Shown: piece after piece, positions 155-25,326 of the stretch
Layout: each line of letters opens with the position of its first letter
How positions within the stretch are numbered: position 1 is the first letter of the stretch
DNA from: Candidatus Omnitrophota bacterium
GTDB taxonomy: Bacteria > Omnitrophota > Gorgyraeia > Zapsychrales > JBDRMG01
Direction of reading: 5' to 3'
NCBI GenBank assembly: GCA_043812495.1
Contig: JBDRMG010000018.1
Span: forward strand, 7,651-71,650
DNA: 64,000 nt
Translations under genes and position numbers: made by a program
Notes under the pieces: model-generated
Seen by the model: the letters and a program-made list of their open reading frames with translations, nothing else
The model's database searches: none
What the model was told of the DNA's origin: nothing

Positions 155-1204
155 TTAATTATTCTCCCGGTCCAATTCGTTCCAATATTCGATTTTATCT
201 TGGCCGGCATTATAAACACATCGAATCACTTTTAAAGAATCATCCCGATACAACTTGGCTGAACTCGTAATGGAATAATAGGACGCTTGCCCGCCCAGCA
301 ATCCTAGGACCTCCGGAACGATGCGTAATTCCTCCGGATCAATCAGTGAGTTTTCCAGCATGTAAAGAAATAACTGGCTGCCGTTTGTGAAAACAAGATC
401 ATCTTCGGTGGCTTCAATTCCATCCGATCCTCGTCGTACCGCTAGGATTCTCTGAATCATAGCTTCCTCCAGGCCGAGGGCCGCTAAAACAACTCCGGAA
501 GCCGTGTTGATATTAATTTGCCCATTTCCGTAAACGGTTAGATATTTTGAAAGTCGATCGTAAATATTTCGGTTGATGCCTTTCACGAGCAGAAGCTCAT
601 CTAAGACTTCGAACTGATTATTTTTGATGAGATAAGGAAACTCAAGGTTACTGTAAAATTCATCGGAATAGAAGCCAACCATTTCGCTTTCGTTGACTTC
701 ACGCCAGTCAACAATCGACAAAGCTAATTTTGATGCCTTAGCCTCATCGACACCCAAGACCTTCTTAATCAACTCTTTCAAAAGAGAGGCGTTCGCCGTG
801 TTGATATTGATCTTGCGCTCCTCGTCCAAGACTCCAAAATAATCATCATTCTTCTTAACCGTTTCAACATCAAAAGTAATTTTGCAGAATCCCTCCTTCA
901 AATCGATTTGACGAAAAGCCCGAGGATTATTGTGGCGCAGCTGCTTGCCGAACGCTGTATACTCAGGGCCATTTACAGAGAACTCCTGCTGGATAAGAGC
1001 GACGGCTTTTTTGACACCGGAAGCGGCTATGAGGTTCAGTTGATCGCGCCGTTCAAGCGTCGATAGCAGCATAATTTTCTGCCTGACGATTGAACCCAGC
1101 GTTAGAGCAAAAAGTGAAAGAAGCCCCAAGCTCCACAAGGCCAGAATAAGGATCGTTGCGTTTTTCTTCTTAATGAGCAAGCGGTCAAGATGTTTCATGG
1201 TCAA
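155..1204 (-). CDS. gspK: Type II secretion / type IV filament minor pseudopilin GspK-like
   Basis: 349 aa. Signal-anchor N-terminus. Internal helix-hairpin-helix-like segments (NINTASGVVLAALGLEEAMIQRIL...) typical of GspK. Last gene of the pseudopilin block; overlaps the upstream pseudopilin stop. Confidence 0.7.
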   Translation of the reverse strand: MTMKHLDRLLIKKKNATILILALWSLGLLSLFALTLGSIVRQKIMLLSTLERRDQLNLIAASGVKKAVALIQQEFSVNGPEYTAFGKQLRHNNPRAFRQIDLKEGFCKITFDVETVKKNDDYFGVLDEERKININTANASLLKELIKKVLGVDEAKASKLALSIVDWREVNESEMVGFYSDEFYSNLEFPYLIKNNQFEVLDELLLVKGINRNIYDRLSKYLTVYGNGQININTASGVVLAALGLEEAMIQRILAVRRGSDGIEATEDDLVFTNGSQLFLYMLENSLIDPEELRIVPEVLGLLGGQASYYSITSSAKLYRDDSLKVIRCVYNAGQDKIEYWNELDRENN

Positions 1205-1855: not shown

Positions 1856-2272
1856 TTAGTTTTTTTGACGTGAGTCATGTTTTCCTATATAGGTCGTGCG
1901 CGAAATACGGATATCGCGCCCTCTCTCTTGCCAGAAAAGAGCAATATCCAATTGATAGACATTATTTAAATTCTCAACACTGCGAACATCCGTCTGAGTA
2001 CGAAAATCAACTGGCCGCTGATCGAATAGAACGCGATCGACAGGCTGCTGCATCTGCAGCGGAATATCTCCTTTTTCTTCAAAAACTTTCTGCATAAACG
2101 CAATACGATTATCGATCAAGGCCAGAGCGTATAGTCGATGAGTTAAGTGATTCATCGCATCCAGAGAAACAAAAAAGGCTTTATACAAAAGCACGAGGCC
2201 AAAAGACAAAATCGCCATCGTCACCATCACCTCGACAAATGTTACGCCGCATTGATTATTTTTTTTGATCAT
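1856..2272 (-). CDS. Prepilin-type minor pseudopilin (GspI/GspH-like)
   Basis: Long ORF 1856..2407 trimmed to internal Met (MIKKNNQCGVTFVEVMVTMAILS) to avoid overlap with gspG. Class III signal motif G|VTFVE followed by a hydrophobic helix. Confidence 0.65.
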   Translation of the reverse strand: MIKKNNQCGVTFVEVMVTMAILSFGLVLLYKAFFVSLDAMNHLTHRLYALALIDNRIAFMQKVFEEKGDIPLQMQQPVDRVLFDQRPVDFRTQTDVRSVENLNNVYQLDIALFWQERGRDIRISRTTYIGKHDSRQKN

Positions 2273-2282
2273 GCGAAAATTC

Positions 2283-2732
2283 CTAGAGGGCCCAATTGGT
2301 AATGTCGTCCTCTTCGTTCGATTCATTCTTTCCTTTTGAATAGAGGTCATAATCGGCTCTGTTTTCTCCCGGCGAAAGATACTGGTAAGGACGACCCCAC
2401 GGATCAATAGGTTTGCGTTCGATATAGGGACCGTTCCAGTTTGGCGGAAGTGGACTTGTCGTAGGTTTCTTCAATAGAGCGTCCAGGCCCTGGCTGGTGT
2501 TCGGAAAATTTCCGTTATCCAGTTCGTAGAGTTTGAGCGCTGTTGATAAGTGCGCGTCAATATCCGCCTTGGCCGCCACCCGTTTGGCTTGTTCCGAGCG
2601 ACCCGTCAGGCGAGGGATGATCATAGCGGATAACGCGCCGATAATAATCACAACGAGCATGATTTCAATTAACGTAAAACCTCTTGTCGTATTTTTGCTG
2701 GTCCTTCGTTGATTGTTGTTTCGTGATTCCAT
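2283..2732 (-). CDS. gspG: Type II secretion major pseudopilin GspG
   Basis: Leader MESRNNNQRRTSKNTTRG|FTLIEIMLVVIIIGALSA. Conserved GspG core ...QAKRVAAKADI...LDNGNFP...QGLDALL...PPNWNGPY...DPWGRPYQY..PG...DYDLYS.G.... Start moved to M14 of the 162-aa ORF. Confidence 0.9.
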   Translation of the reverse strand: MESRNNNQRRTSKNTTRGFTLIEIMLVVIIIGALSAMIIPRLTGRSEQAKRVAAKADIDAHLSTALKLYELDNGNFPNTSQGLDALLKKPTTSPLPPNWNGPYIERKPIDPWGRPYQYLSPGENRADYDLYSKGKNESNEEDDITNWAL

Positions 2733-2746
2733 CAATAAACCTCCGT

Positions 2747-3556
2747 TCATCGAGACGTTGCTCTTAACCACTTTTCCTCTAAGTCTTTTCTCGAGCTGAT
2801 CGAATAGGTGTAGGCACTGCGCAAGGCCTCATCCATATCCTTTCCTTCCTTAAGATTCCAGCACAAGCGTTCAAACGCGCTGCTTCCGTATGTTCGTATC
2901 AAAAAATCGATGATAGATAAACTTTGGGCATAAAATATCCGGACGATGTCCGCGTTGTTCTGTTGATAAATCTGCATTTGGAACAATGTATCAAAAGGAA
3001 TATGCTGATTCTTTTGCGCTAAAGGCTTCATGATCAATTCACCGAGTCTCTTTCGATCTTTTTCATAGAGTTGCGCAATGCCCTCATCGAACCAAACAGG
3101 AAGCGGTCGATCAAACCCGATAAAATCACGTAAAATCAGATGGCTGATTTCATGCGGCAATAAGCCGTCTAAGAATCCATGCTCCTGGCGATAGGTGACA
3201 ATGATGCGCGATCCGAAAAGCTGAGAATGATGATTGGCGTATCCACGGGACCAAAGAGGCTGTTGCGTATTGTTAACAAACGTTTCTTGATTCGGAAAGA
3301 TAATGATTTTGGCCCGATCGTTCCATGTCCAGAAGTTGGAATAGCGCGTATACCCGATTTGTGCCGCAATCTTGTCGTAGTAGCTTTCGGCTTTACGCAG
3401 AACCCGCCGGGCGGCTGACGTATCTTCTTTAAAATTATAGTAAACGATAAAGTGTTTATCCTTCAGATGCAGCCAGGGTTCGGCGTAAGCCAAGTGCGTC
3501 ATGAGAAAGATCTGAAAAACAATATAAAGATTTATAGCTATTTTGCGGCTGATCAT
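2747..3556 (-). CDS. Secreted HExxH zinc-peptidase-like protein (peptidase MA-like domain)
   Basis: 269 aa. Signal peptide (…LMTHLAYA|EP). Motif LLPHEISHLILRDF...VWFDEGIAQLYE, i.e. HExxH plus a downstream Glu. Paralogue of the CDS at 44273..45055. Embedded between gspF and gspG. Confidence 0.6.
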   Translation of the reverse strand: MISRKIAINLYIVFQIFLMTHLAYAEPWLHLKDKHFIVYYNFKEDTSAARRVLRKAESYYDKIAAQIGYTRYSNFWTWNDRAKIIIFPNQETFVNNTQQPLWSRGYANHHSQLFGSRIIVTYRQEHGFLDGLLPHEISHLILRDFIGFDRPLPVWFDEGIAQLYEKDRKRLGELIMKPLAQKNQHIPFDTLFQMQIYQQNNADIVRIFYAQSLSIIDFLIRTYGSSAFERLCWNLKEGKDMDEALRSAYTYSISSRKDLEEKWLRATSR

Positions 3557-3575: not shown

Positions 3576-4784
3576 TTATTGGGCTAAAATATCCATTTGG
3601 AATATGGGAAGCAGCATGGCAATCACCATAAAACCAACGACAGAGCCCACAATGAGAATCATGACGGGTTCCAGCAAGGCGGTCACGGTCCTGATCTTCT
3701 CGTTGGCTTCCTGCTCATAGGAGTCAGCGACATCTCCAAGCGACTCTTCCAGGGATCCTGATTCCTCTCCGATTTTAATCATATCGCAAACCAAGACCGG
3801 GAAAAGATCTGTTTTTCTTAAGCTCTCCCCTAGCGATAATCCTTTCTCCAAATCTTCGCGACAAGGCAGGAGGCCTTCCTGAATAAATCCGTTATTTAAA
3901 GTCGGAATAGAAATGGTCAGGGCCCTCACTAGAGGAACGCCGCTTTTGATCAATAATTCTAATGTCCGTGAAAAGCGCACAATTTCGCTTTTGGAAATGA
4001 TATCACCCAAGAGGGGCAAGCGAAGTTTCAGCCGGCTCAACAAAACGCGCCCGCTTTTGGATTTTGCCCACCTGGAAACCGAAACAAGACCCACGATGAG
4101 GACGACCGAAATAACGGGCCACCCGCGGCGAATCAAGTTGCTGAGATTAATTAATATTTGCGTTGCCAAGGGAAGCTGTTGCTGCATGCTCGCAAATATA
4201 TTTGTGAGCCGGGGCATAACAAACGTCAGAATAAAGATAACGGTCGCACAACCGACGATCGCCATAAACGCGGGATAGGCTATGGCCGCACGGACTTTAC
4301 CGGAAATTTCTTCCTGCTTCTGAAGGTACTCAGAAATGCGAAGCAGCATCTCCCTGAGATTGCCCCCTTCCTCACCGGCTCTGATCATGGCGATGTAAAG
4401 GCCGGAAAAAATATTGGGATAGATGGCCAGGCATTGGGAAAAATTCTCTCCATCCTTAACGCGGCTAACGACAGACTGAATCACACCTTGAAAATAGACA
4501 TTGTGGGTTTGATTCGCCAATAAACTCAAGGCGCGCAAAAGCGGAATACCGGCCTTAAGCAGATTAGCCAGTTGCCGACTAAAAAGATAAATCTCCCTCG
4601 GGCGAACTCGTTGCGGCCTTCCAAAGCTTTTTCGTGCTGACGTTTTTGAGCACTCTTCAACGGAAATAGGAATTAATCCTAAGCGATGAACGATGTCAAT
4701 GGCTTCCTCTTGGTGGCGTGCCTCGAGCGTTCCGGCAACCGTCTCGGTGGCTCCTTTTTTGGCCTTGTAACGATATGTGGGCAT
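3576..4784 (-). CDS. gspF: Type II secretion inner-membrane platform protein GspF (PilC/MshG family)
   Basis: 402 aa. Two GspF-type repeats with three TM segments. N-terminal MPTYRYKAKKGATETVAGTLEA typical of GspF/PilC. Directly downstream of the ATPase gene. Confidence 0.9.
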   Translation of the reverse strand: MPTYRYKAKKGATETVAGTLEARHQEEAIDIVHRLGLIPISVEECSKTSARKSFGRPQRVRPREIYLFSRQLANLLKAGIPLLRALSLLANQTHNVYFQGVIQSVVSRVKDGENFSQCLAIYPNIFSGLYIAMIRAGEEGGNLREMLLRISEYLQKQEEISGKVRAAIAYPAFMAIVGCATVIFILTFVMPRLTNIFASMQQQLPLATQILINLSNLIRRGWPVISVVLIVGLVSVSRWAKSKSGRVLLSRLKLRLPLLGDIISKSEIVRFSRTLELLIKSGVPLVRALTISIPTLNNGFIQEGLLPCREDLEKGLSLGESLRKTDLFPVLVCDMIKIGEESGSLEESLGDVADSYEQEANEKIRTVTALLEPVMILIVGSVVGFMVIAMLLPIFQMDILAQ

Positions 4785-4807: not shown

Positions 4808-7030
4808 CTACGGACTGATTCGTGCGTTGACAAAATCTTTGATATGCGCGCGATCAGCGCTCGATATATCAAGAAAATAGACCGCGATACTGTACATATT
4901 CGAGAGAACGTCCTCCTCGACGCGGCAAACCTTGGCCAAGCAATCAATGCTTGGCTGATCAGACTTAAAATGTATTTTTAACTCCAGAATCGAACCGGCA
5001 GCAATCGAGTAACTCGACGTAAAGAGCAATCCGCCAGCGCTAATGTTTTTTGTCTGCGAGGAATGCTCGATCTCCCCTCGTTTGATCTTTAAATCTTGAG
5101 AATCCGTGGATTCCTCTTCAAAGACCCTGTAGCGAATCTTAACTTTTTCTTTGATCCGCGAATAAGCGCGCTGATCATATTCCTTTCTGGCTTGAGTCAT
5201 GACATTCTTGGAAATGGTGCGAAATTCTCCTATGGCTTCATCGGAAACGGAATGCCCCTTGCCCTCCGGACCCAAGGCCTCCTTGTTTTTGCCTGGCTCT
5301 CCTTTTTTCGGACCATAGTCTTCTTTGCTTGTGACATTGAGAATTTCCATAGGTGTCGTGATCCCCTCGACAACCTTTTGCCAACCGTTTTGCCGCAGCG
5401 TCATCATGCCTTCCTGCATCGCTAAGTGCTTAATATAGTTGGTCCGCGGTTTTTCTAAGATGGCCGCGCGAATCTTTTCGGTGACGATCAGGACTTCATG
5501 GATAGCTGTCCGGCCGTAAAAACCCGTATGGTTACATCGGTCGCATCCCTTGCCGGAATAGAATTTAATATCTTCGATTTTTAATCCCAGAGCTTCGGAA
5601 ATCTCTTTTTTGACTTCAAGAAACGGACTCATCACTTGATTTTTGCAATAGGGGCAAATCAACCGAACTAAACGCTGGGCCACAAAGGCCTCAACGCTTG
5701 AAGCCACCAAATACGGCTCAAGTCCCATATCGATGAGCCTGGTCACGCCGCTAGCCGCGTCATTGGTGTGCAGCGTCGAGAAAACCAAGTGGCCGGTCAA
5801 GGCGGTACGAATCGCGATTTCCGCGGTCTCGATGTCCCTCACCTCTCCGACCATGATAATATCGGGATCGTGTCTTAAAATGCTTCGCAGGCCCCGGGCA
5901 AAATCAAGATCCACCTTGGCATTCACTTGGATTTGCGTCACCCCTTCCATCTCATATTCAATAGGATCCTCGATCGTGATGATTTTGCGCTCCAGGGAGT
6001 TGATTTCATGAAGACAGGCATAGAGCGTTGTTGTCTTACCGCTTCCGGTCGGACCTGTGACAAAAATAATCCCGTGCGGTTTCTTGATGAGTTCGCGAAA
6101 TTTTTTGACATTCTCCTGATCTAATCCTAATTTCTCAAGGCTCAGAAGCATAACTTTTGACGGCAGGATGCGTAACACCATACTCTCGCCCGACGGTGTC
6201 GGCATGGTCGATACGCGCAAGTCCAGGGTCTGATCTTTTGTCTTGACGACGGCGCTTCCATCCTGCGGCAGTCGCTTCTCGACAATGCTCAAATTGGACA
6301 TGATTTTGATGCGCGAAAGAATGGACGGCAAGAAATGCCTGATATCCGCCGGCAGGTTGGCATCGACCAAAACACCGTCGATGCGATAGCGGAACCTCAG
6401 CTTGTTGCGATAGGGTTCGATATGGATATCCGTCGCTCGTTTTTTGTACGCCTCAAGGATGATTTGGTTAACGAGCTTAATGACAGAGGCGTCTTCGGAT
6501 TTTTTCTCCACGTCTTCGATGGCTTGCCGATCCATATCTTGCGGAGTTCTTCTCGCGGGTTCTTTAGTCAGAATCCTCTCAATGGTATCCGAAGCCAAAC
6601 CGTAATATTTCTTAAGCATCTCAACGATATCGGATTCCTTAGCAAGAACCATTTTAGGCTGAAACCCCAGGTTCACCCTAATTTCATCCTGAATCTTGAC
6701 ATCCAGAGGCAAGGCTACCGCGCATGTTAAAAACTTCTCTTCAACTTTGATCGGCATAAAACGATAATACCAGGCAAACCGGACAGGGACTTTTTGAACA
6801 ATGTCCTGATCCATATCGGCTTTTCGGAGATCGATCGTGTCAATCTGAAAGTGTGCGGCACAGACTTTGAGAATTTGGTCTTCGCTCACCAAGCCTTGCG
6901 CGACAATATGCGTAGAACAGGACTCGCCGGACAGCTGAACCTCGCGCAAAGACTTTGCGGCCTGCTCCGGAGTCAGAAGATTTTCTCGGACTAAAATTTC
7001 CAATAATGTTTTCTCGATTTGCTTAATCAT
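4808..7030 (-). CDS. gspE: Type II secretion / MSHA-type ATPase GspE/MshE with N-terminal MshEN-like domain and C-terminal PilZ-like domain
   Basis: 740 aa. Walker A GPTGSGKTTTLYA. Tetracysteine zinc motif CPYC...CDRC. N-terminal LLEILVRENLLTPEQAAKSLREVQ / IVAQGLVSEDQILKV repeats resemble the MshEN c-di-GMP-binding motif. The C-terminal ~110 aa carry PilZ signatures RAYSR(IKEKVKIRYRV)...NISAGGLLF. Confidence 0.9.
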   Translation of the reverse strand: MIKQIEKTLLEILVRENLLTPEQAAKSLREVQLSGESCSTHIVAQGLVSEDQILKVCAAHFQIDTIDLRKADMDQDIVQKVPVRFAWYYRFMPIKVEEKFLTCAVALPLDVKIQDEIRVNLGFQPKMVLAKESDIVEMLKKYYGLASDTIERILTKEPARRTPQDMDRQAIEDVEKKSEDASVIKLVNQIILEAYKKRATDIHIEPYRNKLRFRYRIDGVLVDANLPADIRHFLPSILSRIKIMSNLSIVEKRLPQDGSAVVKTKDQTLDLRVSTMPTPSGESMVLRILPSKVMLLSLEKLGLDQENVKKFRELIKKPHGIIFVTGPTGSGKTTTLYACLHEINSLERKIITIEDPIEYEMEGVTQIQVNAKVDLDFARGLRSILRHDPDIIMVGEVRDIETAEIAIRTALTGHLVFSTLHTNDAASGVTRLIDMGLEPYLVASSVEAFVAQRLVRLICPYCKNQVMSPFLEVKKEISEALGLKIEDIKFYSGKGCDRCNHTGFYGRTAIHEVLIVTEKIRAAILEKPRTNYIKHLAMQEGMMTLRQNGWQKVVEGITTPMEILNVTSKEDYGPKKGEPGKNKEALGPEGKGHSVSDEAIGEFRTISKNVMTQARKEYDQRAYSRIKEKVKIRYRVFEEESTDSQDLKIKRGEIEHSSQTKNISAGGLLFTSSYSIAAGSILELKIHFKSDQPSIDCLAKVCRVEEDVLSNMYSIAVYFLDISSADRAHIKDFVNARISP

Positions 7031-7034
7031 AAGT

Positions 7035-7194
7035 CGAAATATTATAATTTAATTTGTTTAATCCACCGATTCCGCCAATGGGACATTGACGGAATCGGTG
7101 TCAATTCGGCATTATGACTTATGTCGTCCGCCACTGAATCAATGGCGGACTCCATAAGTCATGGCCTCATTGAGATGGAGCGCATGGTGATTGA
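7035..7194. repeat. REP/MITE-like palindromic intergenic element (family A)
   Basis: Contains the ATTATAATTT.ATTTGTTTAATCC motif, hairpin caccgattccg...cggaatcggtg, and nested palindrome catgacttatg-tccgccactgaatcaatggcgga-cataagtcatgg. Related copies at 11318-11662, 21876-21977, 28130-28380, 36545-36620, 37296-37500 and 54515-54675. Confidence 0.7.
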
Positions 7195-8751
<1,557 letters not shown>

Positions 8752-8754
8752 TTA

Positions 8755-9606
8755 TTATCTCTTCGTCATCATTCTCGCTGTAAAGACTTCGCGCATACTT
8801 TTGTCAATATCGCCTTTTTTGGCCTTGCCAAAAGACATCTGAACACCTTTTTTTTGCTTCTGCATTTTCTGCAAGCTCGATTCTAATTGCTGAGACTGGG
8901 CCGCCGCTTCCGAGATGGCCGTATCATGCAGCATTTCGTAAATACGGCAGACAATCCACATATCGGCCAAGTAACCGATAATATCAACGGGATCAGACTC
9001 TTCAATCACCTTCTCGATGGTCTCCACAAAATCGGCTTGTTTGGTTAAGAGTTCCTCACAAGGAAGCAATTTGACAACGCGAGGTTTTTGTATCATAAAG
9101 TTCTTTGACCAGGGATAGACAACATTCGCTCGGCCGATTTTTCCGGTCATGATTTGTTCGATCAAATGATCCTTGATGTGGATGGCCGTCTCATAGAGCC
9201 CCGTTTCTTCAATATCTTCAAAAACCTTCATCTCGACACCCGGCCTTGCCATCTTAACGGCTCCTTTGCGCCCACAGGCAATCAAGAAAGAGTCTTTGTA
9301 TTTGCTTTGTTCGCTTAAGGCCGCACGGATAACGCGGCTATTCAGATCACCCATAAAGCCCGCTTCCGACGTGATCACCACGATTCCTGTAGCCGGATTG
9401 TCATTGGACACAAGCGGGTGCCTGACCCTTGAAAGACTGATCATGCGGAAAAATTCGACAAAAGACTCCCCAAAACGGGCAAAACGATCTTTTCGGTTGG
9501 CCAGCGTATGAAATTTATTGTCCGCAACGTCTTTAAGAACCTGGATGATTTGAAGCAACTCGATAATATCATCCAGATCGCCTTTAATTTTATTGGCTTT
9601 TCCCAT
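8755..9606 (-). CDS. atpG: F-type ATPase gamma subunit
   Basis: 283 aa. ...VVITSEAGFMGDLN... (the ITSDRGLCG equivalent). C-terminal helix ...REVFTARMM. Sits between the b/delta fusion and beta. Confidence 0.75.
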   Translation of the reverse strand: MGKANKIKGDLDDIIELLQIIQVLKDVADNKFHTLANRKDRFARFGESFVEFFRMISLSRVRHPLVSNDNPATGIVVITSEAGFMGDLNSRVIRAALSEQSKYKDSFLIACGRKGAVKMARPGVEMKVFEDIEETGLYETAIHIKDHLIEQIMTGKIGRANVVYPWSKNFMIQKPRVVKLLPCEELLTKQADFVETIEKVIEESDPVDIIGYLADMWIVCRIYEMLHDTAISEAAAQSQQLESSLQKMQKQKKGVQMSFGKAKKGDIDKSMREVFTARMMTKR

Positions 9607-9621
9607 ACAGCAATCCTTTGA

Positions 9622-10365
9622 TCAAGCGCCTTCGGCTCCTTCTTTTAAACTGACAGAAGTTTCCGTAATCAGATTCTGCAAACTTGCGTCCAAGGCCAAA
9701 CTGCCAAACCGTAAGACCACTCCTCCGATCACCTGAGGATCGACAGTCGTTTTGATATCGATGGTGCGCCCTAATTTCTCTTTAATAATATCGGAAATCT
9801 TTTTCTTGATATCTTCGGGCAAAGTACTTGCAACAATGATTTCCGCTGTTTCGATGTCTTTGCCGATTTGTGTCATGTCCACTTTTGTAAGACTCGCGAT
9901 AAACTCATCGGACAGTTGTTGATTGAGCAGGCCTCTGGCTTTCTCGCTTAAGACCTTCGAAAGTAAATCACCGGCATAGGTAATCATTTTGAGCTCAACT
10001 TCTTTTTTGACCTCAGAGCGCATCTGATCTTTTGTTCTCTGAGCCTTGGCGATGATCTCCTCGCTTTCGAACCTGGCTTTCTTGACAATTTCATCCCGTT
10101 CGGCCTTGGCTTTTTTATCAGCTTTTTCCAGCATCTTTTTGGTCAGTTCATCGGCCTCTTTCTTTCTTTTCTCAAGTTCCTCATTGGCGGCCTTGATCTT
10201 CTGGTCCAATTCTGTTTGCTTGGCCCTGGCTTCTTCCGTTTCGCGGTTAAGCCGTTTGACCGCTCCTTCTGTTTGCGAAACAAAAACATTTCGTAAAGTA
10301 AAAATAATGACACCCACCGCGACGACTTGCAGGAGCATAAATTTAAAGATCCACATCCAGGTCAT
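9622..10365 (-). CDS. F-type ATPase peripheral-stalk fusion: subunit b (TM + coiled coil) fused to delta/OSCP C-terminal domain only
   Basis: N-terminal TM MTWMWIFKFMLLQVVAVGVIIF. About 120 aa of charged coiled coil. C-terminus ...LGRTIDIKTTVDPQVIGGVVLRFGSLALDASLQNLI matches the delta C-terminal domain (E. coli ...[30 protein letters not shown]). The delta N-terminal helical bundle is absent. Confidence 0.75.
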   Translation of the reverse strand: MTWMWIFKFMLLQVVAVGVIIFTLRNVFVSQTEGAVKRLNRETEEARAKQTELDQKIKAANEELEKRKKEADELTKKMLEKADKKAKAERDEIVKKARFESEEIIAKAQRTKDQMRSEVKKEVELKMITYAGDLLSKVLSEKARGLLNQQLSDEFIASLTKVDMTQIGKDIETAEIIVASTLPEDIKKKISDIIKEKLGRTIDIKTTVDPQVIGGVVLRFGSLALDASLQNLITETSVSLKEGAEGA

Positions 10366-10468
10366 AGTTTGTTGCCTCCCAAATTTAGAATAATCATAAT
10401 AACGTTCATGGCAGAAATTATTTCCATTGTAATCATTTCTTAATCATTGCGTTTCGGCGAGAATATGA

Positions 10469-10713
10469 TCACTCGCCAAAACTCGACATCACATGGTAAA
10501 ACGTCAATAACATAGTGACTGAAACACCCTCCACCGCGATGAGCTGAAGCAGAATGCTCATCTGAATAGCCGGTGTTTTACTCGGAAAAAGAGAGATAGC
10601 TGCTTAATCATGCGATAACCGATCCAGGCAATAGACACGCAAGGGACCAGAATCATGAAGGCGATGATGGCAACAAGGACTAATCCTGTTGTTAAGGTCT
10701 CGCTAACAGCCAT
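10469..10713 (-). pseudogene. Second F-type ATPase c-subunit copy interrupted by a 1-nt frameshift in a T5 run
   Basis: Frame 1: MAVSETLTTGLVLVAIIAFMILVPCVSIAWIGYRMIKQLS... stops after 51 codons. Shifting by one nt at the T5 homopolymer (~10586-10596) continues as ...PSKTPAIQMSILLQLIAVEGVSVTMLLTFYHVMSSFGE. Helix 1, helix 2 and the conserved carboxylate E all align to the intact c subunit at 10733..10954. Confidence 0.6.
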
Positions 10714-10732
10714 AGGAAATACCTTCTATAAA

Positions 10733-10954
10733 TTACCTTCCGAACAATTGAAAGATGATTAAAATAGCCATAATAGATATGGCCTCGACAAAAATAAGCA
10801 AAACCACCATCCCCATGAAGATCTTAGAGGCCGCGGATGGATTACGTCCTAAAGCTTTAATAACGGAATAACCCAAGACAGCAATCACAACAGACGGTCC
10901 CATGACCGCAATAAACATAATCGAAATAATGATAAAGGATTCTGCCCAACGCAT
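10733..10954 (-). CDS. atpE: F-type ATPase c subunit (proteolipid)
   Basis: 73 aa. Two TM helices and a polar loop GRNPSAASK. Conserved acidic residue in helix 2 (LLIFVEAISIMAIL). Confidence 0.8.
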   Translation of the reverse strand: MRWAESFIIISIMFIAVMGPSVVIAVLGYSVIKALGRNPSAASKIFMGMVVLLIFVEAISIMAILIIFQLFGR

Positions 10955-10990
10955 ATTTTATTGAATTACACTCCTGTCCATGCCAACCAC

Positions 10991-11317
10991 TTAACCCCCA
11001 TCACCCTCGGGTTTCTCCTGAGCAAAAACAATATCTTCTTCTTTGGTTTTCTTAACCTTCTCCTGCTCTTCCTGTTCGACCAGGACAATGCAATCATTCG
11101 CGAAGAATCGGATGACGCCGCCTCTAATCGGAACCGCTTCTTTCCAATCAATAATGATGCTGCCTTTCTGCAAGATACCCAAAACAGGATAGTGATAGGG
11201 CAGCAATTCATATTCGCCCGTATCTCCCGACAAGAAGACACTATGCACTTCGTTCTCGTAAATGAGCGCATCGGGTGTCATAATCGTTAATTTGAATGTT
11301 CCTTTGTATCGAGCCAT
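10991..11317 (-). CDS. atpC: F-type ATPase epsilon subunit (N-terminal beta-sandwich; short acidic C-terminus)
   Basis: MARYKGTFKLTIMTPDALIYENEVHSVFLSGDTGEYELLPYHYPVLGILQKGSII...GGVIRFFANDCIVLVE aligns with the epsilon N-domain (L.VV.P....F.G.V..V...G..GE.GI.P.H.P.L..L..G). The C-terminal helical hairpin is replaced by an E/K-rich tail. Confidence 0.7.
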   Translation of the reverse strand: MARYKGTFKLTIMTPDALIYENEVHSVFLSGDTGEYELLPYHYPVLGILQKGSIIIDWKEAVPIRGGVIRFFANDCIVLVEQEEQEKVKKTKEEDIVFAQEKPEGDGG

Positions 11318-11662
11318 GTTAAGGAAATATTATAATTGCATTTGCTTGATCCCCGCCCGCCATTGATTCAGTGGCGGGCGGGGTCAAACCCAGCGGGGAA
11401 TCCCCGCCTTTATTTAAGGCGGGGAGGAGAGCAAATACCAGCAACAAAGTTGCTGGTCAAGCTCTGCTTGAAAAACAATTTATCAAGTACCACGGCTGTG
11501 GGTATCTATTTCGGTCATGCACTTATGTTTCCGTCAATTCGATAAAATCGAATTGACGAGACCTCGCTAAATTTTGAGAAAATGTGCGGGCACTATCGTT
11601 CCATAAGCGCGGGCCTCATTGATTAGTAAGAGTTCTTGTTGAGTAGCCTTTCTTTGCAATCG
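11318..11662. repeat. Palindromic repeat cluster inside the atp gene array (family A)
   Basis: 345-bp non-coding gap between atpA and atpC. Contains AATATTATAATTGCATTTGCTTGATCC, hairpin ccccgcccgccattgattcagtggcgggcgggg, cggggaatccccg, and the perfect palindrome cgtcaattcgat-aaa-atcgaattgacg (also at 28243-28269). Confidence 0.7.
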
Positions 11663-13204
11663 TCAGCTCCCTTTCGCCGTTGTCGCCTTATCCAGCGCAT
11701 CCTCCCCCACGCCAACTTCCTCGGCTTCCTCTTCTTCATCCTTGGGTCTTTTAGCTTCCGCTTCTTTAATGTAGTCTTTAATCACGCTCTCGAAACCTTT
11801 GGTGATTTCATCGTCTATTTTTTTTCTTTCGCGCAGGATCTTCAATAGATCCGGATTCTTTTTCTGACAAAAGGGCGCAATTTCATTCTGAAAGGCCTTG
11901 ACCTCGTCAATCGTCAATTGCAACAGAAGTTTCTTAGTGTAGGCATAAAGAACAAAAGCCAGTGCCTCCAGGGAAACCGGGCTATCTTTGTCTTGCTTGA
12001 TGATTTCAGTTAAAATTTCGCCTGTCTTCATCTGTTGCTGGGCTTCTTCGGACTGTCCGGATGATTTTAATTTAGAAACCCGCAATAATTCCCTGAATTG
12101 GATATAATCCAAACGCAAAGAACCGGTGAATTTCTTGATGACAGGCCATTGGACTTTACTTCCGACGCGAGAAACGGAAAGACCGATATCCACGGCGGGC
12201 TTCTGCCCTTCTCCGAAAAGCGGCGTGCTTAACATGATTTGGCCATCGGTCATCGAAATAAGATTCGAGGAAATATATCCCGTCAAATCTCCTTCTAGAA
12301 TTTCGACAATAGGCAAAAATGTCATCGAACCTCCTCCATGGTCTTGGTCCAAGAAGGCGGCTCGCTCAATCATCTTCGAGTGCAAGTAAAAAATATCTCC
12401 CGGATAAGAGTCGCGGCCGGGCGGACGTCCCAATAATAGAGAAATTTCACGATAACACCAGGCATGTTTAGTAAAATCGTCAAAGCCGACAATCACATCT
12501 TTTCCCTGATTCATAAAATGCTCGCCGATAGAACAGGCCACGTAGGGAGCCAAGTATTGTTGTCCGGGCGGACAGGAAGCAGTGGCCGAAACAATGATCG
12601 TGTACCTAAAGCACTCGTGATCTTGGAATAGCTGTACAACCTTAGCTAAGGATGATCTTGATTTTCCGATGCAGCAATAGATACAAACAACATTTTTTCC
12701 CTTTTGATTCAGAATAGTATCTGTAATAATTGTTGTTTTCCCCGTCATTTTGTCGCCAAGAATGAGCTCTCTTTGACCATAACCAATAGGGATCATGGTA
12801 TCCAATACCTTAATCCCAGTCTCTAAAGTTTTACACAAAGGAACTCGGGCCAAAATAGGAGGGGCATTAATAAAAATAGGCGCCATTTTATCATGCTCAA
12901 GAGGCCCTAAGCCGTCAAGCGACTCCCCCAAAGGATTGACAATCCGCCCCAATAATTTGTCGCCAACGGGAACAAGAAACGGCTCCAGAGAAGCGACCGC
13001 CTTATCACCAGTCTTGATCTTCTCTGTCTCCTTAACGATCAGAACCTGGGCCTCGGTCTCGTCAAAACCAATGATGGTTCCTTCTGTCCCATATCCAAAT
13101 TTGATGAGCTGTCCGCTGATGCAGTGTTTAAAACCCGTCACCACAACGATACATCCGCGGATACACCGGACCCGTCCAATCTCTGTATAACGTAAATCTG
13201 CCAT
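11663..13204 (-). CDS. atpA: F-type ATPase alpha subunit (N-terminally truncated, Cys-rich variant)
   Basis: Aligns to canonical alpha from the beta-barrel onward. Walker A GDKMTGKTTIITDTILNQ. ...ATASCPPGQQYLAPYVACSIGEHF..., ...LLLGRPPGRDSYPGDIFYLHSKMIERAA, ...SVSRVGS. The ~30 N-terminal residues that normally bind delta are missing. RBS GGAGC 8 nt upstream of the ATG. Confidence 0.85.
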   Translation of the reverse strand: MADLRYTEIGRVRCIRGCIVVVTGFKHCISGQLIKFGYGTEGTIIGFDETEAQVLIVKETEKIKTGDKAVASLEPFLVPVGDKLLGRIVNPLGESLDGLGPLEHDKMAPIFINAPPILARVPLCKTLETGIKVLDTMIPIGYGQRELILGDKMTGKTTIITDTILNQKGKNVVCIYCCIGKSRSSLAKVVQLFQDHECFRYTIIVSATASCPPGQQYLAPYVACSIGEHFMNQGKDVIVGFDDFTKHAWCYREISLLLGRPPGRDSYPGDIFYLHSKMIERAAFLDQDHGGGSMTFLPIVEILEGDLTGYISSNLISMTDGQIMLSTPLFGEGQKPAVDIGLSVSRVGSKVQWPVIKKFTGSLRLDYIQFRELLRVSKLKSSGQSEEAQQQMKTGEILTEIIKQDKDSPVSLEALAFVLYAYTKKLLLQLTIDEVKAFQNEIAPFCQKKNPDLLKILRERKKIDDEITKGFESVIKDYIKEAEAKRPKDEEEEAEEVGVGEDALDKATTAKGS

Positions 13205-19232: not shown

Positions 19233-19293
19233 TGATTCTCCTTAGCGCTATCCATTCTTTTTTTCATACAAAGATTCTTCCTAGAGCCATGCC

Positions 19294-19869: not shown

Positions 19870-19898
19870 GCGATCTCCTTATGTTTAATTCGTTATAT

Positions 19899-21859: not shown

Positions 21860-21875
21860 AATCTTATCCTTTTTT

Positions 21876-21977
21876 GAAATATTATGATTGTATTTGCTTG
21901 ATCCCCAGAGTCCGCCACTGATTGAGCGGCGGGACATCCGTAAGTCGCGGCCTCATTAAGATTTGTTTAATATTCTT
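21876..21977. repeat. REP/MITE-like element (family A) between secretin and TPR genes
   Basis: AAATATTATGATTGTATTTGCTTGATCCCC + ccgccactgattgagcggcgg hairpin + ...cggcctcattaag. Confidence 0.65.
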
Positions 21978-23609
21978 TCACTTGCGTAAATCAATTGTCT
22001 TTTGGCGATAATCTTTCATGGGTTTAATCGAACCGCGCCACTCATCGTAGGGTTCGGTCGCCTGGACGATGTGCGGCGTAATAAAGATTACGATTTCCGT
22101 ATTTGTGATGGTATCGCTTTTGCTGCCAAAAAGATTGCCCACAAAAGGAATATCCATTAAGAACGGTATTCCTTTTTTAATTCCGCTTTTGTCTGCCTTT
22201 TTCAGGCCGCCTAAGATCACCGTGTTTCCGTCTTTGACCATGACGGTCGTCTCCACAAGTGTTTTGTTGACCTGCGGAATACCGCCGCCTTGCGAACTGA
22301 TTCTGGCGACAACCGTTGAGATCTCGGGCAAAAGACGCATCGTGACATAACCGTCATCATTGATTGTCGGTGTGACATTCAATTTCAAACCCACATCCAC
22401 AAAGCGCACGTCTTCTGAAGTGATGGCATTGTCTCCTGTACCCGATGTTGTAGAAATAATATAGGGCACGGTATCCCCGATATGGATTTTGGCCTCTTCA
22501 TTATTGGTCACCAGAAGTTTTGGATTCGATAAAATACGCGTATCGCTGATCTGCTTGAGAGCGCGCAAAGACATTTGAAAGGCATCCTGCGTAAAGTTGC
22601 CCACAGCGACCTTGCTGAACATGGAATAGAGATTGTCGCTCGTGGATAAATTGCTTTCATCCAAAAAGGCATTATTAAAGGAGACTTTTTTGATCTCATC
22701 GTCCGCGCTGTATCTGAAGTCCAGATTCCAATCCACGCCTGCATCAAACTGGGGCTTAAAGGTCAATTGCAAAACACGCGCCTCAATCATGACTTCCTTG
22801 GTTTTGACATCCAGGCTTTTCACTAATTCATCCACATCCTTGCGCCGGCCCGGAAAGGCGCGGACAATGAGCTGATTGGAGCGTTCGTCGGCCACAACAG
22901 AACCCACGGCATTGGCATCGATGCGGCTTCTTAATTTTTCCGCGACCACATCGGCCTTGGCGTATTGCAGATTGTAAATATACGTTTCCAGGGGTTTTTC
23001 GATTTGGATGATGGCCTCTTTCATTCGCGCGATGGCCTCGGGCGTATCGATCATCACAACCGAACCCGTATCCTCATCAATGATAATTTTGCCCAGATTG
23101 CTTTTGATATTATCCAGGGTTGCCAGCGCATAGCTGGGCTTGGCGTAATCCAGATGAACGATGCTCACCTGAGAACGGTCATTGAATTTGCGACCATACA
23201 TTTCCTGGTATTCGGCCTCGGACATGACAAAGATGATTTCATTCTGGAGCGTATACGCTAGGCCGTTGGAAATCAAAATGATGTCCAAGACATCTTCGAT
23301 CGAAACGCTTTGCAGATACAGGGTGATGCGGCCGCCCACGGCCCGGGAGGTGACCACATTGAATTCGCCTTTGAGCGCCAGAAATTTAATGACATCGATG
23401 ATGTTCATGTCGCGCACATCCAGGGTGATTTTGCGCTCCAGGCGTTTTTCGAGAGCATCCTGAACATTTTTGGACTTGATGGGAATCGGGGCTTCGATCA
23501 GTTCTTGATCTAATTCTTGAGCATACGCTACGGTGCATGCCCATAGGATCGCCGTCAGACACAATGTCCGACACAAAACATTCATTCTGCTTTTGTGTAT
23601 TTTTCTCAT
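21978..23609 (-). CDS. gspD: Secretin (GspD/MshL/PilQ family outer-membrane channel)
   Basis: 543 aa. Signal peptide. N0-type domain. C-terminal secretin domain ...NPKLLVTNNEEAKIHIGDTVPY...VGLKLNVTPTINDDGYVTMRLLPEIS...VMVKDGNTVILGGL...IPFLMDIPFVGNLFGS...EIVIFITPHIV. Confidence 0.9.
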   Translation of the reverse strand: MRKIHKSRMNVLCRTLCLTAILWACTVAYAQELDQELIEAPIPIKSKNVQDALEKRLERKITLDVRDMNIIDVIKFLALKGEFNVVTSRAVGGRITLYLQSVSIEDVLDIILISNGLAYTLQNEIIFVMSEAEYQEMYGRKFNDRSQVSIVHLDYAKPSYALATLDNIKSNLGKIIIDEDTGSVVMIDTPEAIARMKEAIIQIEKPLETYIYNLQYAKADVVAEKLRSRIDANAVGSVVADERSNQLIVRAFPGRRKDVDELVKSLDVKTKEVMIEARVLQLTFKPQFDAGVDWNLDFRYSADDEIKKVSFNNAFLDESNLSTSDNLYSMFSKVAVGNFTQDAFQMSLRALKQISDTRILSNPKLLVTNNEEAKIHIGDTVPYIISTTSGTGDNAITSEDVRFVDVGLKLNVTPTINDDGYVTMRLLPEISTVVARISSQGGGIPQVNKTLVETTVMVKDGNTVILGGLKKADKSGIKKGIPFLMDIPFVGNLFGSKSDTITNTEIVIFITPHIVQATEPYDEWRGSIKPMKDYRQKTIDLRK

Positions 23610-24373
23610 AGTTTCAACACCCGCTCCTCGTTTTCATACGTCAGGATGATCCGGTCGGCATAGATAGTTTTAATGGCCACATCATTAATTGTTTCGCCTT
23701 GTTTGAGGAAAAATGTCACTTGGCTTACGGTATTTTCAATCATGGCCGATGCCGATTCCGGGGTCTCGGACCAGGAGATCCCCACCAGCTTTAGGTCTTT
23801 GGTCATTGTTTCTATTTCACTGGCCTGAAGCTCGACAATGAGATCTTCGGTCGGCTTTTTCTTCTCATAAGGCTGAAACAGGTTGCGCCGTTTAAAATTC
23901 TCCAGGTAGTCGCTGATTTGCTTGATCGGAAGAAGCGCCATTATCATTTGCCCTTTTTGATTTTGGTCGACTTCAAAAATTACCTTTCCTTTGACGGACT
24001 TGAAATCTTTGATGACGTTGATCGTCAGAATCACCGCTGTGACCATGACTATGACACCTAAGAGGTGATTGATTTCTTTTAATCCTAAAGACAACGAGGC
24101 GGGGAATTGCGGAGGCTTTCCTTTGAGCAAATCCATCAGGGGCGATAAAAAAGACGGAAGATTGAGGGGTGGCAACCCTGTTCCTTTGACGGCTTGAGCT
24201 ACTTGCTGGGCCGCATCCTGGCTTTGAGGCGCCGGAGACGCCTGAGGCTGAGGTTGAGCTTGAGGCGATTGCGGGGTTTGCGGAGCTTGCTGGGCTTGGG
24301 CGGCTTGCTCTTGCTGGCCCTGGCTTTCAATGATTTTTAAAAGTTTTTGTTCAGCGGTTTCTTTTTTGGCCAT
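23606..24373 (-). CDS. Bitopic Q/P-rich inner-membrane protein, putative GspC/PilP-like secretin-interacting component
   Basis: 255 aa. Cytoplasmic Gln/Pro-rich N-terminus, single TM (LLGVIVMVTAVILTINVI), ~130-aa periplasmic domain. Stop overlaps the secretin start (translational coupling). Assignment is by topology and context only. Confidence 0.4.
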   Translation of the reverse strand: MAKKETAEQKLLKIIESQGQQEQAAQAQQAPQTPQSPQAQPQPQASPAPQSQDAAQQVAQAVKGTGLPPLNLPSFLSPLMDLLKGKPPQFPASLSLGLKEINHLLGVIVMVTAVILTINVIKDFKSVKGKVIFEVDQNQKGQMIMALLPIKQISDYLENFKRRNLFQPYEKKKPTEDLIVELQASEIETMTKDLKLVGISWSETPESASAMIENTVSQVTFFLKQGETINDVAIKTIYADRIILTYENEERVLKL

Positions 24374-24384
24374 GGCTCATTTTC

Positions 24385-25326
24385 TTACATCTTTGTTTTT
24401 TGAATGTTCGGATGACGATCGAGGCCGACTTGTCTTTCCTTTTCGATCACATCGCGCACAATGATGCGGTCCACCATCGGCTTATTCTGCATGACCATCT
24501 CTTTTAAAACCTTATGGCACAAAAGCGTGATCGCGCGCGGATACCCTTTGGAATAGTTATAAATTTCGCTCACGGCCTCATCATGAAAGAATTCCATGCG
24601 ACCGCTGTAGCCCGCTTTTTGAATACGGTAGTGAATCATGGCTTTTGTTTCCTGCGGCCCTAAAGGATTCAGCGTATATTTGAAACTGATCCGGTCTAGG
24701 AAGTTGGGCATGTTGACAATCTTGGGATACAATTCCATCTGCCCTAAGAGAACCAGTTGAATCAATTTGTATTCGTTGGTTTCGAAATTGAGAAGCAGGC
24801 GCAAAACTTCCAAGGTGGTGAGGCTCAGTTTTTGCGCTTCATCGATAATGAGAATGACTGTACTTTTTTCTTCCACACATTTTTGAATCAGGAACCGCTC
24901 GATGGTATCGCGCAGTTCCAAAATATTGGTCATATTGGTTTGGGTTTCCTGGTCGTACTCCAAGCTAAAATTTTTCACCAGAGAAAATAAAAACTGCTCT
25001 TCGCTTTCAAAGGACGGATTGAGGATCATATGAAAAATCATGTCGCCGCGCGCGCGAAGTTCTTGGACGAGTTTGCGCGAGAGAGATGTCTTTCCCGTTC
25101 CTATATCTCCAAAGATGACTGTGAGTCCGCGCTTTAAGCGCAGTTCAATCAGGATATTGGTGAGGGCCATGTCGTGTTCCCGGGTGAGATAAAAGAATTC
25201 CGGATCAGGGCTTGTGGAGAAGGGTTCCTTTTGAAATCCTAATAATTTATAATAACTCATATTCAGCTTACTATTAATATTAATTAACAGAACTAAAAAA
25301 ATTTTGCCTATCCGACGGATGAGCAA
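24385..25326 (-). CDS. ExeA/GspA/MshM-like AAA ATPase
   Basis: 313 aa. MSYYKLLGFQKEPFSTSPDPEFFYLTREHDMAL...VIFGDIGTGKTSLSRKL (ExeA-type N-terminal block and P-loop). Walker B IIDEAQKL. No TM or PG-binding extension, which makes it MshM-sized. Confidence 0.75.
   Translation of the reverse strand: MLIRRIGKIFLVLLININSKLNMSYYKLLGFQKEPFSTSPDPEFFYLTREHDMALTNILIELRLKRGLTVIFGDIGTGKTSLSRKLVQELRARGDMIFHMILNPSFESEEQFLFSLVKNFSLEYDQETQTNMTNILELRDTIERFLIQKCVEEKSTVILIIDEAQKLSLTTLEVLRLLLNFETNEYKLIQLVLLGQMELYPKIVNMPNFLDRISFKYTLNPLGPQETKAMIHYRIQKAGYSGRMEFFHDEAVSEIYNYSKGYPRAITLLCHKVLKEMVMQNKPMVDRIIVRDVIEKERQVGLDRHPNIQKTKM

Follow-up and report, generated by a model that had tools for sequence, protein, structure and literature searches.

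A gene of Candidatus Omnitrophota, located at 4808..7030 on the minus strand of the window (the whole 64,000-nucleotide stretch of DNA analysed here), encodes a GspE/PilB-type ATPase to which a PilZ domain is fused in cis. On the strength of the profile match, the predicted fold and the conserved motifs, residues 604-740 of this protein are a canonical PilZ domain of the c-di-GMP-binding type, and the MshEN-like domain at the opposite end keeps its fold with a degenerate c-di-GMP site. The favoured reading, held with reasonable though limited confidence, is that the c-di-GMP input of the ATPase has shifted from the MshEN domain to the flexibly tethered PilZ domain, and we consider it similarly plausible that the gene product is the assembly (extension) ATPase of a filament machine of the T2SS/type IVa-pilus type. 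The arrangement is a modest, conserved variation on the known second-messenger control of pilus assembly. To our knowledge, direct c-di-GMP control of pilus/secretion ATPases is known only via MshEN domains or separate adaptor proteins; a cis-fused canonical PilZ domain together with a decayed MshEN site would represent a natural receptor swap inside one motor protein. The family provides a compact single-polypeptide system for PilZ communication with the PilB/GspE hexamer, and it marks the F-ATPase/pilus locus of Omnitrophota as probably second-messenger-regulated. It has been proposed that this locus, which belongs to an uncultured phylum, serves the bacteria in attaching to host cells or preying on them.

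Domain architecture of the fused ATPase

The minus strand is the coding strand of 4808..7030, since stops occur throughout the plus-strand translation, and the open reading frame reported by the first-pass annotation is present there at its full 740 residues. Its product is 100% identical to the NCBI protein of a Candidatus Omnitrophota MAG. From the N- to the C-terminus the order of domains is MshEN-like N1D, T2SSE ATPase, disordered linker and PilZ, and the T2SSE, MshEN and PilZ domains each exceed the Pfam gathering cutoff. The features of the gene are as follows:

4808..7030, minus strand: GspE::PilZ gene, 740 aa plus stop (ORF list, translation, Pfam domains)
6593..7030, minus strand: MshEN/T2SSE_N-like domain, residues 1-146, fold kept, c-di-GMP site degenerate
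6938..7009, minus strand: equivalent of MshEN motif I, TLLEILVRENLLTPEQAAKSLREV, residues 8-31, with R, G, G, Q replaced by T, L, N, V
6851..6922, minus strand: equivalent of MshEN motif II, SCSTHIVAQGLVSEDQILKVCAAH, residues 37-60, with R, L, G, Q replaced by S, C, S, H
5342..6499, minus strand: T2SSE (GspE/PilB-type) core, N2D plus CTD, residues 178-563 (PF00437, E 4e-132)
6032-6055, minus strand: Walker A
5843-5869, minus strand: Walker B
5762-5797, minus strand: His box
5534-5656, minus strand: tetracysteine Zn site
5222..5329, minus strand: disordered low-complexity tether from ATPase to PilZ, residues 568-603
4811..5221, minus strand: PilZ domain plus preceding helix, residues 604-740 (PF07238, AF2, Foldseek, motif conservation)
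5156-5170, minus strand: RxxxR motif, RAYSR, residues 621-625
5030-5047, minus strand: NxSxGG motif, NISAGG, residues 662-667

Among 120 homologues no variation occurs in Walker A, Walker B, the Asp and His boxes or the four cysteines that bind Zn, and the ATPase is, as far as its sequence indicates, catalytically intact. Among PDB structures Geobacter PilB (5TSG) is the closest, with E 2e-131, and the matches to PilB and GspE structures there range from E 1e-116 to 1e-131. With the NCBIfam models the protein scored 579 for GspE (TIGR02533, cutoff 630) and 571 for PilB (TIGR02538, cutoff 676), and it is assignable neither to the GspE nor to the PilB equivalog; the "MSHA" label that it had been given is unfounded, the two scores being about equal and both below cutoff. 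The ATPase is followed by a tether that AF2 modelled with pLDDT <50 across residues 581-601, and which across the family measures 12-49 aa (median 32), shows 12% identity and is rich in E, K, A, P and S.

The PilZ and MshEN-like domains

PF07238 matched residues 642-735 with 47.3 bits (E 2.7e-12, Pfam) against a gathering cutoff of 22.5 bits, well outside what chance would give, and the AF2 model of the tail (pLDDT 91) consists of a six-strand barrel (32-121 of the model) and a C-terminal helix (125-139). Both the profile search and the predicted PilZ beta-barrel thus bear out the PilZ-like domain that the first-pass annotation had proposed for the C-terminus. The two PilZ hallmarks occur in the order described there, while their spacing, put at about 30 residues, is in fact 36 residues. 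The top PDB matches to the tail model obtained with Foldseek were c-di-GMP-bound PilZ domains, namely those of MotI, Alg44, PA0012, YcgR, MrkH and BcsA, with a probability of 1.00 for MotI, Alg44, YcgR, MrkH and BcsA; the tetrameric Xanthomonas PilZ appeared among the matches only at a rank of at least 34. R621, R625 and G667 are kept in 120/120 homologues, D/N662 in 119, G666 in 116 and S664 in 111 of them, and both motifs are retained in divergent representatives at 47-49% overall identity. Given this invariance at a mean PilZ-domain identity of 44% across the family, the ligand-site residues are probably under selection, and we infer from the conserved motifs that the tail binds c-di-GMP.

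At the other end of the protein, PF05157 matched residues 61-146 (E 9e-14, Pfam), in agreement with the T2SSE_N/MshEN assignment made earlier, and the domain aligns to V. cholerae MshE-N (PDB 5HTL, E 9e-9) and to Geobacter PilB (E 4e-15). The tandem MshEN-like motifs that had been noticed do exist as a structural repeat, two units of ~24 residues (8-31 and 37-60), 5 residues apart, that together make up four helices (AF2 pLDDT >90), but the residues of the c-di-GMP site have been replaced. In the alignment to 5HTL, positions R9, G11, Q32, R38, G40 and Q61 of MshE correspond to T, L, V, S, S and H, and the family consensus is likewise substituted at these positions; Leu/Ile at +7 and +11, the guanine-stacking positions in MshE, is conserved in the family. 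Arg9 and Gln32 of MshE were reported to matter for the binding of c-di-GMP (PMC5013675).

The motif defined by Wang et al. (2016) comprises two 24-residue stretches of RLGxx(L/V/I)(L/V/I)xxG(L/V/I/F)(L/V/I)xxxxLxxxLxxQ with 5 residues between them. A regular expression for its relaxed form, which gave two matches in MshE as positive control, matched 0/120 family members and 0/5 divergent representatives. The NCBIfam model NF053729 (c-di-GMP motif, MshE-related) scored 23.9 bits here against a cutoff of 38, and this cutoff was reached by 0/66 members scanned (best E 3e-8, ~34 bits by conversion), 35 of which gave a weak sub-threshold match. The claim of two c-di-GMP receptor modules is not supported by these results: because the N-terminal Arg/Gly/Gln binding residues are lost and the relaxed motif is absent from the 120 members, the protein probably has one working c-di-GMP receptor, not two. 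Despite the loss of the motif, the N-terminal domain may bind the ligand weakly or in an unconventional manner.

The locus and the distribution of the fusion

The neighbouring genes, identified by Pfam, are the following:

155-1204, minus strand: GspK
1201-1809 and 1856-2407, minus strand: two minor pseudopilins
2283-2771, minus strand: GspG major pseudopilin
2747-3556, minus strand: Peptidase_MA_2
3576..4784, minus strand: GspF/PilC platform protein, directly downstream (PF00482, E 5e-64)
7195..13204, minus strand: F-type ATPase genes, upstream (context rather than part of the sensor)
7195-8736, minus strand: F-type ATPase beta
8755-9606, minus strand: F-type ATPase gamma
9622-10365, minus strand: F-type ATPase b/delta
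~10366-10732, minus strand: second c-like gene
10733-10954, minus strand: F-type ATPase c
10991-11317, minus strand: F-type ATPase epsilon
11663-13204, minus strand: F-type ATPase alpha
21978-23609, minus strand: secretin GspD
23606-24373, minus strand: GspC-like
24385-25326, minus strand: AAA_22 ExeA-like ATPase

The GspD, GspC-like and ExeA-like genes (21978..25326), which lie upstream of GspE::PilZ, probably encode outer parts of the same machine. Another gene in the window looks frameshifted. In the related loci GspF adjoins GspE::PilZ in 26/26 cases, and the grouping of the latter with GspF, GspG and GspK in the 26 loci indicates a conserved operon, the gene order being F-type ATPase genes, GspE::PilZ, GspF, peptidase, GspG, pseudopilins and GspK. 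Wherever a locus extends far enough, F-ATPase beta lies directly upstream of GspE::PilZ, with spacers often <50 bp, and no terminator-like site was found on the coding strand of the spacer between the two genes. By phylum and by co-location of its parts, the window is an instance of the "symbiotic" type 2/3 F-type ATPase/type IVa pilus locus already described in Omnitrophota (Seymour et al., 2023; PMC10066038), a paper that is apparently silent on a PilZ fusion or second-messenger control, since a term search for "c-di-GMP" found it absent from the text. No description of a GspE/PilB-PilZ fusion was found in the PilZ, MshEN, PilB-cofactor and Omnitrophota literature, in a search that left subscription journals mostly outside. 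Genes for GGDEF/EAL domains gave no tblastn match in the window and the 26 related loci (~0.4 Mb, all of one region) with approximate probes; GGDEF domains in giant proteins, as well as conserved small pilZ genes, have been reported in Omnitrophota (preprint 10.1101/2023.11.21.568195).

The MshEN-T2SSE-PilZ architecture was present in every taxon-labelled relative, essentially all of them Candidatus Omnitrophota, and the fusion was recovered from at least 120 independent clusters of NCBI, JGI, ENA and Logan assemblies; a 10-sequence core alignment was the query for the scan of genome collections. All matches of a profile search over 1.84 billion representatives were further MshEN-T2SSE-PilZ proteins or fragments, and those with a taxon label (P0226, P0222 and P0271) are Omnitrophota, the label being absent from most matches; the tail of a second subfamily used as query gave 29 fragments, mostly without taxon label. 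The same synteny was observed in MAGs labelled "Planctomycetales" and in one labelled "Lysobacterales", which are tentatively regarded as loosely named or mis-binned Omnitrophota. The PilZ-fused GspE/PilB-type ATPase noted at first pass is, on the evidence of Pfam domains and homologue search, a genuine and conserved architecture, and the domain identities, the motif conservation, the tether, the phylum-wide conservation and the locus context are established.

Proposed regulation and alternative readings

In the mechanism proposed here, each subunit of a hexameric GspE/PilB ATPase would carry a canonical PilZ beta-barrel on a disordered tether of ~35 residues. The PilZ domain would bind c-di-GMP, the RxxxR loop closing over the ligand, and the liganded domain would alter its packing against the ATPase, a candidate docking site being the degenerate N1D of the same hexamer, by comparison with the complex formed in trans between PilZ and PilB's N-terminal domain in Xanthomonas. 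The outcome would be the licensing of ATP-driven filament assembly through GspF, with activation as the favoured direction; PilZ activates BcsA and Alg44, yet brakes the flagellar motor via YcgR and MotI. What we infer in this scheme is that the ligand binds, which way it acts and where the PilZ domain docks, and the docking site is unsupported by the full-length AF2 model (pTM 0.58). A broader version, put forward tentatively and in our view rather doubtful, is that throughout Omnitrophota the c-di-GMP input has moved from the MshEN site to the tethered C-terminal PilZ domain, which docks in a ligand-dependent manner on the vacant N1D and gates the attachment/predation apparatus of these ultra-small, host-dependent bacteria. 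If so, PilZ-N1D docking would be the single-chain counterpart of the three-protein PilB-PilZ-FimX switch, and the gated apparatus would be the "symbiotic" F-ATPase/pilus locus beside GGDEF-bearing giant surface proteins.

Control by two sites or with two thresholds, the MshEN and PilZ domains both binding c-di-GMP, would agree with the retained MshEN fold, two-repeat layout and 5-residue spacer, with the conserved stacking positions and with the weak NF053729 matches; we consider it quite improbable, as the polar/Gly positions are all substituted both here and in the consensus, Arg9 and Gln32 among them, and no member of those examined matches the relaxed motif or reaches the NF053729 cutoff. 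That the PilZ domain is no ligand switch and serves mainly for docking or localisation, its partner being the platform (PilM/N, GspL-like) or another component, has a precedent in X. citri, where PilZ partners PilB physically without binding ligand (PMC8389850; preprint 10.1101/814665). PilZ proteins of this type II class have neither RxxxR nor [D/N]xSxxG, and their barrel is incomplete (preprint 10.1101/814665), whereas here both motifs are present and essentially invariant at 44% identity and the barrel is complete (motif alignment, AF2). The nearest structures, moreover, are ligand-binding PilZ domains, with the Xanthomonas tetrameric form far down the ranking, and a purely adaptor-like function appears unlikely.

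The PilZ tail might also form a physical or regulatory link between the pilus ATPase and the F-type ATPase encoded beside it, c-di-GMP controlling both motors, as the immediate 5' position of F-ATPase beta, the short spacers and the lack of a terminator-like site on the coding strand could suggest. The evidence for such coupling is gene adjacency, we know of no PilZ-F1 interaction, and we give this reading very little credence. The first-pass proposal that direct second-messenger control extends over the entire locus, the adjacent ATPase included, meets the same difficulty, conserved gene order being the only link to the F-type ATPase, and locus-wide c-di-GMP control is unsupported because a PilZ domain on GspE would act on GspE itself. 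A mis-assembly or frameshift that merged a GspE gene with an independent small pilZ gene was also considered, stand-alone small pilZ genes being common in Omnitrophota (preprint 10.1101/2023.11.21.568195) and a frameshift-like gene being present elsewhere in the window. The open reading frame is nevertheless continuous here and in at least 120 independent clusters, including a 3.36 Mb chromosome, with the linker in frame throughout; because the fusion recurs across independent assemblies, an artefact was rejected and its probability is negligible.

The favoured reading, an assembly ATPase with its c-di-GMP input moved to a tethered PilZ domain, has parallels in three known systems. V. cholerae MshE (5HTL), M. 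xanthus PilB and T. thermophilus PilF belong to the same ATPase family, with the N1D-N2D-CTD organization and the Zn tetracysteine. MshE and many PilB proteins bind c-di-GMP through MshEN, and the presumed logic here is the same, c-di-GMP acting directly on the assembly motor (PMC5013675), but the MshEN ligand residues are gone and a PilZ domain has been added at the opposite end. In the X. citri PilB-PilZ-FimX and P. aeruginosa PilZ (PA2960)-PilB systems, and probably here, a PilZ-fold partner is combined with a PilB N-terminal domain that does not bind c-di-GMP (PMC8389850, PMC10333796), the X. citri PilZ binding the N-terminal ND0-ND1 domain of PilB (PMC8389850). The Xanthomonas PilZ is a separate type II protein that binds no ligand, c-di-GMP being sensed by the EAL domain of FimX, in contrast to the domain described here, a cis fusion in which the canonical binding motifs are retained. 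The BcsA cellulose synthase and Alg44, both among the structural matches, likewise carry a canonical RxxxR/DxSxxG PilZ domain fused to the regulated machine; the regulated part here would be a hexameric secretion/pilus ATPase, where theirs is a glycosyltransferase or co-polymerase, and the PilZ domain hangs on a long disordered tether.

PilZ domain of a GspE/PilB-type ATPase

GspE::PilZ, a protein of 740 aa, is encoded by an uninterrupted ORF (ORF list and translation) at 4808..7030, where the first-pass annotation had placed it, on the minus strand; stops interrupt the plus-strand translation of the same interval. Three Pfam domains were called, each exceeding its gathering score:

residues 61-146, MshEN (PF05157), E 9e-14
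residues 178-563, T2SSE (PF00437), E 4e-132
residues 642-735, PilZ (PF07238), E 2.7e-12, 47.3 bits vs a cutoff of 22.5

In the family alignment Walker A (GPTGSGKT), Walker B (DPDIIMVGE) and the His box are invariant, as are all four Zn-site cysteines (C459, C462, C496, and C499), and the nearest solved structures are Geobacter and Myxococcus PilB and Vibrio GspE. Since the NCBIfam scores for GspE (579 bits) and PilB (571 bits) are nearly equal and both under their own equivalog cutoffs, the protein is designated, on its sequence, a GspE/PilB-type assembly ATPase; no line of evidence speaks for the "MSHA" assignment made previously. The core is followed by a disordered tether (residues 568-603; pLDDT <50 at 581-601 in the full-length model), which in the family comprises 12 to 49 residues, is rich in E/K/A/P/S and shows 12% identity.

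The first-pass annotation had recognized a C-terminal PilZ domain by RxxxR followed by NxSxGG and had proposed a profile search and a structure prediction. Both motifs are present in this order (RAYSR, residues 621-625; NISAGG, 662-667), separated by 36 residues rather than the ~30 initially estimated, and the significant Pfam match makes the assignment more than a coincidence of two short motifs. The AlphaFold2 model of residues 600-740, built with an alignment of 40 homologous tails, recovered the PilZ beta-barrel between an initial and a C-terminal helix (mean pLDDT 91). With this model as query, the top 35 positions of a Foldseek search against the PDB were all PilZ domains, most of them containing c-di-GMP, and matches included Bacillus subtilis MotI, Pseudomonas aeruginosa Alg44 and PA0012, Escherichia coli YcgR, Klebsiella pneumoniae MrkH, BcsA and Vibrio cholerae PlzD; MotI was also matched at the sequence level by the family profile, with the NISAGG motif in the alignment. 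Across the best 120 homologues in the database, no substitution occurs at R621 or R625, and the second motif is nearly invariant (D/N662, 119/120; S664, 111/120; A665, 119/120; G666, 116/120; G667, 120/120), although mean identity to the window protein across the PilZ domain is only 44%, a contrast that is read as selection preserving the predicted ligand site. The tail is a canonical PilZ domain in every feature that could be tested, and a type II adaptor PilZ was rejected.

Degenerate ligand site in the MshEN-like domain

V. cholerae MshE-N (5HTL) aligns with residues 1-146 (N1D) at E 9e-9, and Geobacter and Myxococcus PilB give stronger alignments; four helices followed by an alpha/beta subdomain were modelled with pLDDT >90 (AlphaFold2, full-length). 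The tandem ~24-aa motifs noted at first pass were confirmed as repeats (residues 8-31 and 37-60, with a 5-residue spacer and conserved hydrophobic positions) and in their fold; their ligand-site residues, conversely, have been replaced. Aligned to MshE, none of the defining polar and glycine positions is retained (R9 to T, G11 to L, G18 to N, Q32 to V, R38 to S, L39 to C, G40 to S, and Q61 to H), Arg9 and Gln32 being reported as important for binding (Wang et al., 2016; PMC5013675), and the family consensus is likewise degenerate. The relaxed motif from that study, which matched the positive control MshE twice, was found in 0/120 family members, nor was it present in P0055 (a representative 58% identical), in P0188, P0190, P0226, and P0249 (representatives with 47-49% identity) or, by inspection, in a pair of proteins from a second subfamily. 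The window protein scored 23.9 bits against the NCBIfam model of the MshEN c-di-GMP motif (NF053729; cutoff 38); only 35 of 66 sampled family members matched at E <= 0.01, with a top E of 3e-8 (~34 bits, converted from E). By motif and by profile, the domain does not qualify as a functional MshEN receptor. The N-terminal receptor site is thus probably non-functional, and the two c-di-GMP receptor modules originally proposed are reduced to one likely module, the PilZ domain.

Distribution and genomic context of the fusion

The window protein has a 100% identical counterpart at NCBI, from a Candidatus Omnitrophota MAG, and the same three Pfam domains, already annotated on these proteins in public collections, occur in 120/120 best matches (55-65% identity, 711-760 aa). 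A profile run against 1.84 billion representatives at 50% identity added full-length MshEN-T2SSE-PilZ proteins with 47-49% identity and many contig-edge fragments. The few taxon-labelled members are all Omnitrophota, and the divergent representatives mostly carry a functional name alone or no name. The 23 loci found in GTDB species genomes are labelled Omnitrophota/Omnitrophica (12), "uncultured Planctomycetales" (9), "uncultured bacterium" (1), and "Lysobacterales" (1), the last three labels being taken as loose naming or mis-binning. A second, rarer GspE-PilZ subfamily (P0270, P0271, P0143-P0172; labelled members Omnitrophota) bears (E/D)RRxYxR before the barrel vs SRxYPR in the main family, and its MshEN motif is likewise degenerate. 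P0265 (611 aa) combines GGDEF, AAA_16, and a PilZ domain that, at 68.6 bits against the tail profile, is related to the GspE::PilZ tail.

The gene order of the window recurs in every related locus of sufficient reach: a ~455-aa protein, F-type ATPase alpha, epsilon, c, c-like, b/delta, gamma, and beta, then GspE::PilZ, GspF, Peptidase_MA_2, GspG, two pseudopilins, and GspK, with PilM/N beyond the GspK end in longer loci. Farther upstream, the window encodes a secretin, a GspC-like protein and an ExeA-like ATPase; its neighbouring features are:

2747-3556, minus strand, Peptidase_MA_2 gene, flanked by GspF and GspG in almost every related locus
7031-7194, minus strand, beta-GspE spacer, 164 bp vs about 6-40 bp in relatives
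7195-13204, minus strand, F-type ATPase genes, directly upstream of GspE::PilZ in all related loci (L001-L026)
~10366-10732, minus strand, second c-like gene, spanning two reading frames
13291-14658, minus strand, ~455-aa protein gene, directly upstream of alpha in all related loci
14667-18641, minus strand, 1324-aa protein gene, N-terminal Laminin_G_3 followed by tandem repeats
18666-20489, minus strand, three paralogues in tandem, ~190-aa products with signal-peptide-like N-termini

The F-type ATPase set includes a b/delta fusion and a second c-like hairpin protein, both c-type proteins retain a membrane Glu, and no a-subunit gene was found in the cluster in the window or in L001-L026. The c-like gene breaks near the SLFF/SLFPSKTPAIQ junction and is unbroken (73-81 aa) in L001 and L002; the split is either a homopolymer assembly error (frameshift) or a pseudogene. 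The extra spacer sequence, which the other loci lack, can form two perfect hairpins, GTCCGCCA...TGGCGGAC and CACCGATTCC...GGAATCGGTG; no T-run comes after either of them. A metallopeptidase at such a position in a T2SS/T4P operon is unusual. The ~455-aa protein (34-56% identity among related loci) has hydrophobic segments at its termini and no Pfam match. The 1324-aa protein, with dozens of ~14-residue repeats (GINWxDxxxxSxx), occupies the slot of giant proteins in relatives (7092 aa in L001) and is probably a surface/adhesin component of the same apparatus. The ~190-aa paralogues, without Pfam matches, are flanked by it and by a TPR/coiled-coil protein (20789-21937). That a non-respiratory "symbiotic" F-type ATPase is encoded together with a type IVa pilus cluster was reported for Omnitrophota (Seymour et al., 2023; PMC10066038), in a paper where the term "c-di-GMP" does not occur. 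The earlier proposal that the adjacent ATPase is also under second-messenger control had gene adjacency as its sole basis and is not retained.

Predicted control of filament assembly by c-di-GMP

An intact ATPase, a conserved canonical PilZ domain that is flexibly tethered, a decayed ligand site in the MshEN domain and conserved operon membership are the observed basis of the following model. The PilZ domain would bind c-di-GMP via RxxxR and NxSxGG, and the liganded domain may alter its contact with the ATPase hexamer, modulating filament assembly through GspF. Activation at high c-di-GMP is favoured, on the model of MshE/PilB and BcsA/Alg44; a YcgR/MotI-type brake is a possible alternative. 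The vacant N1D is a reasonable candidate for the PilZ docking site, considering that the PilB of Xanthomonas citri, which has no c-di-GMP binding of its own, is bound by PilZ at its N-terminal ND0-ND1 domain (PMC8389850; PMC10333796). No GGDEF/EAL genes were detected in the window or related loci, which cover little independent sequence; c-di-GMP signalling is plausible in Omnitrophota, as GGDEF domains inside giant proteins and small conserved pilZ genes adjacent to them were reported (preprint 10.1101/2023.11.21.568195).

Functionally, GspE::PilZ resembles the c-di-GMP-responsive motors MshE and PilB; structurally, it corresponds to a built-in PilZ, as in BcsA, joined to a motor of this type, and it echoes the partnership in trans of PilB and PilZ in Xanthomonas and Pseudomonas. 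PilZ domains are fused to many outputs and GspE/PilB-type ATPases are known c-di-GMP targets, so the fusion is not surprising in principle. In the reviews on PilZ, MshEN and PilB cofactors and the Omnitrophota genomics papers searched, from a literature that covers few subscription journals, no GspE/PilB-PilZ fusion was found described; that of GspE::PilZ is both conserved and testable.
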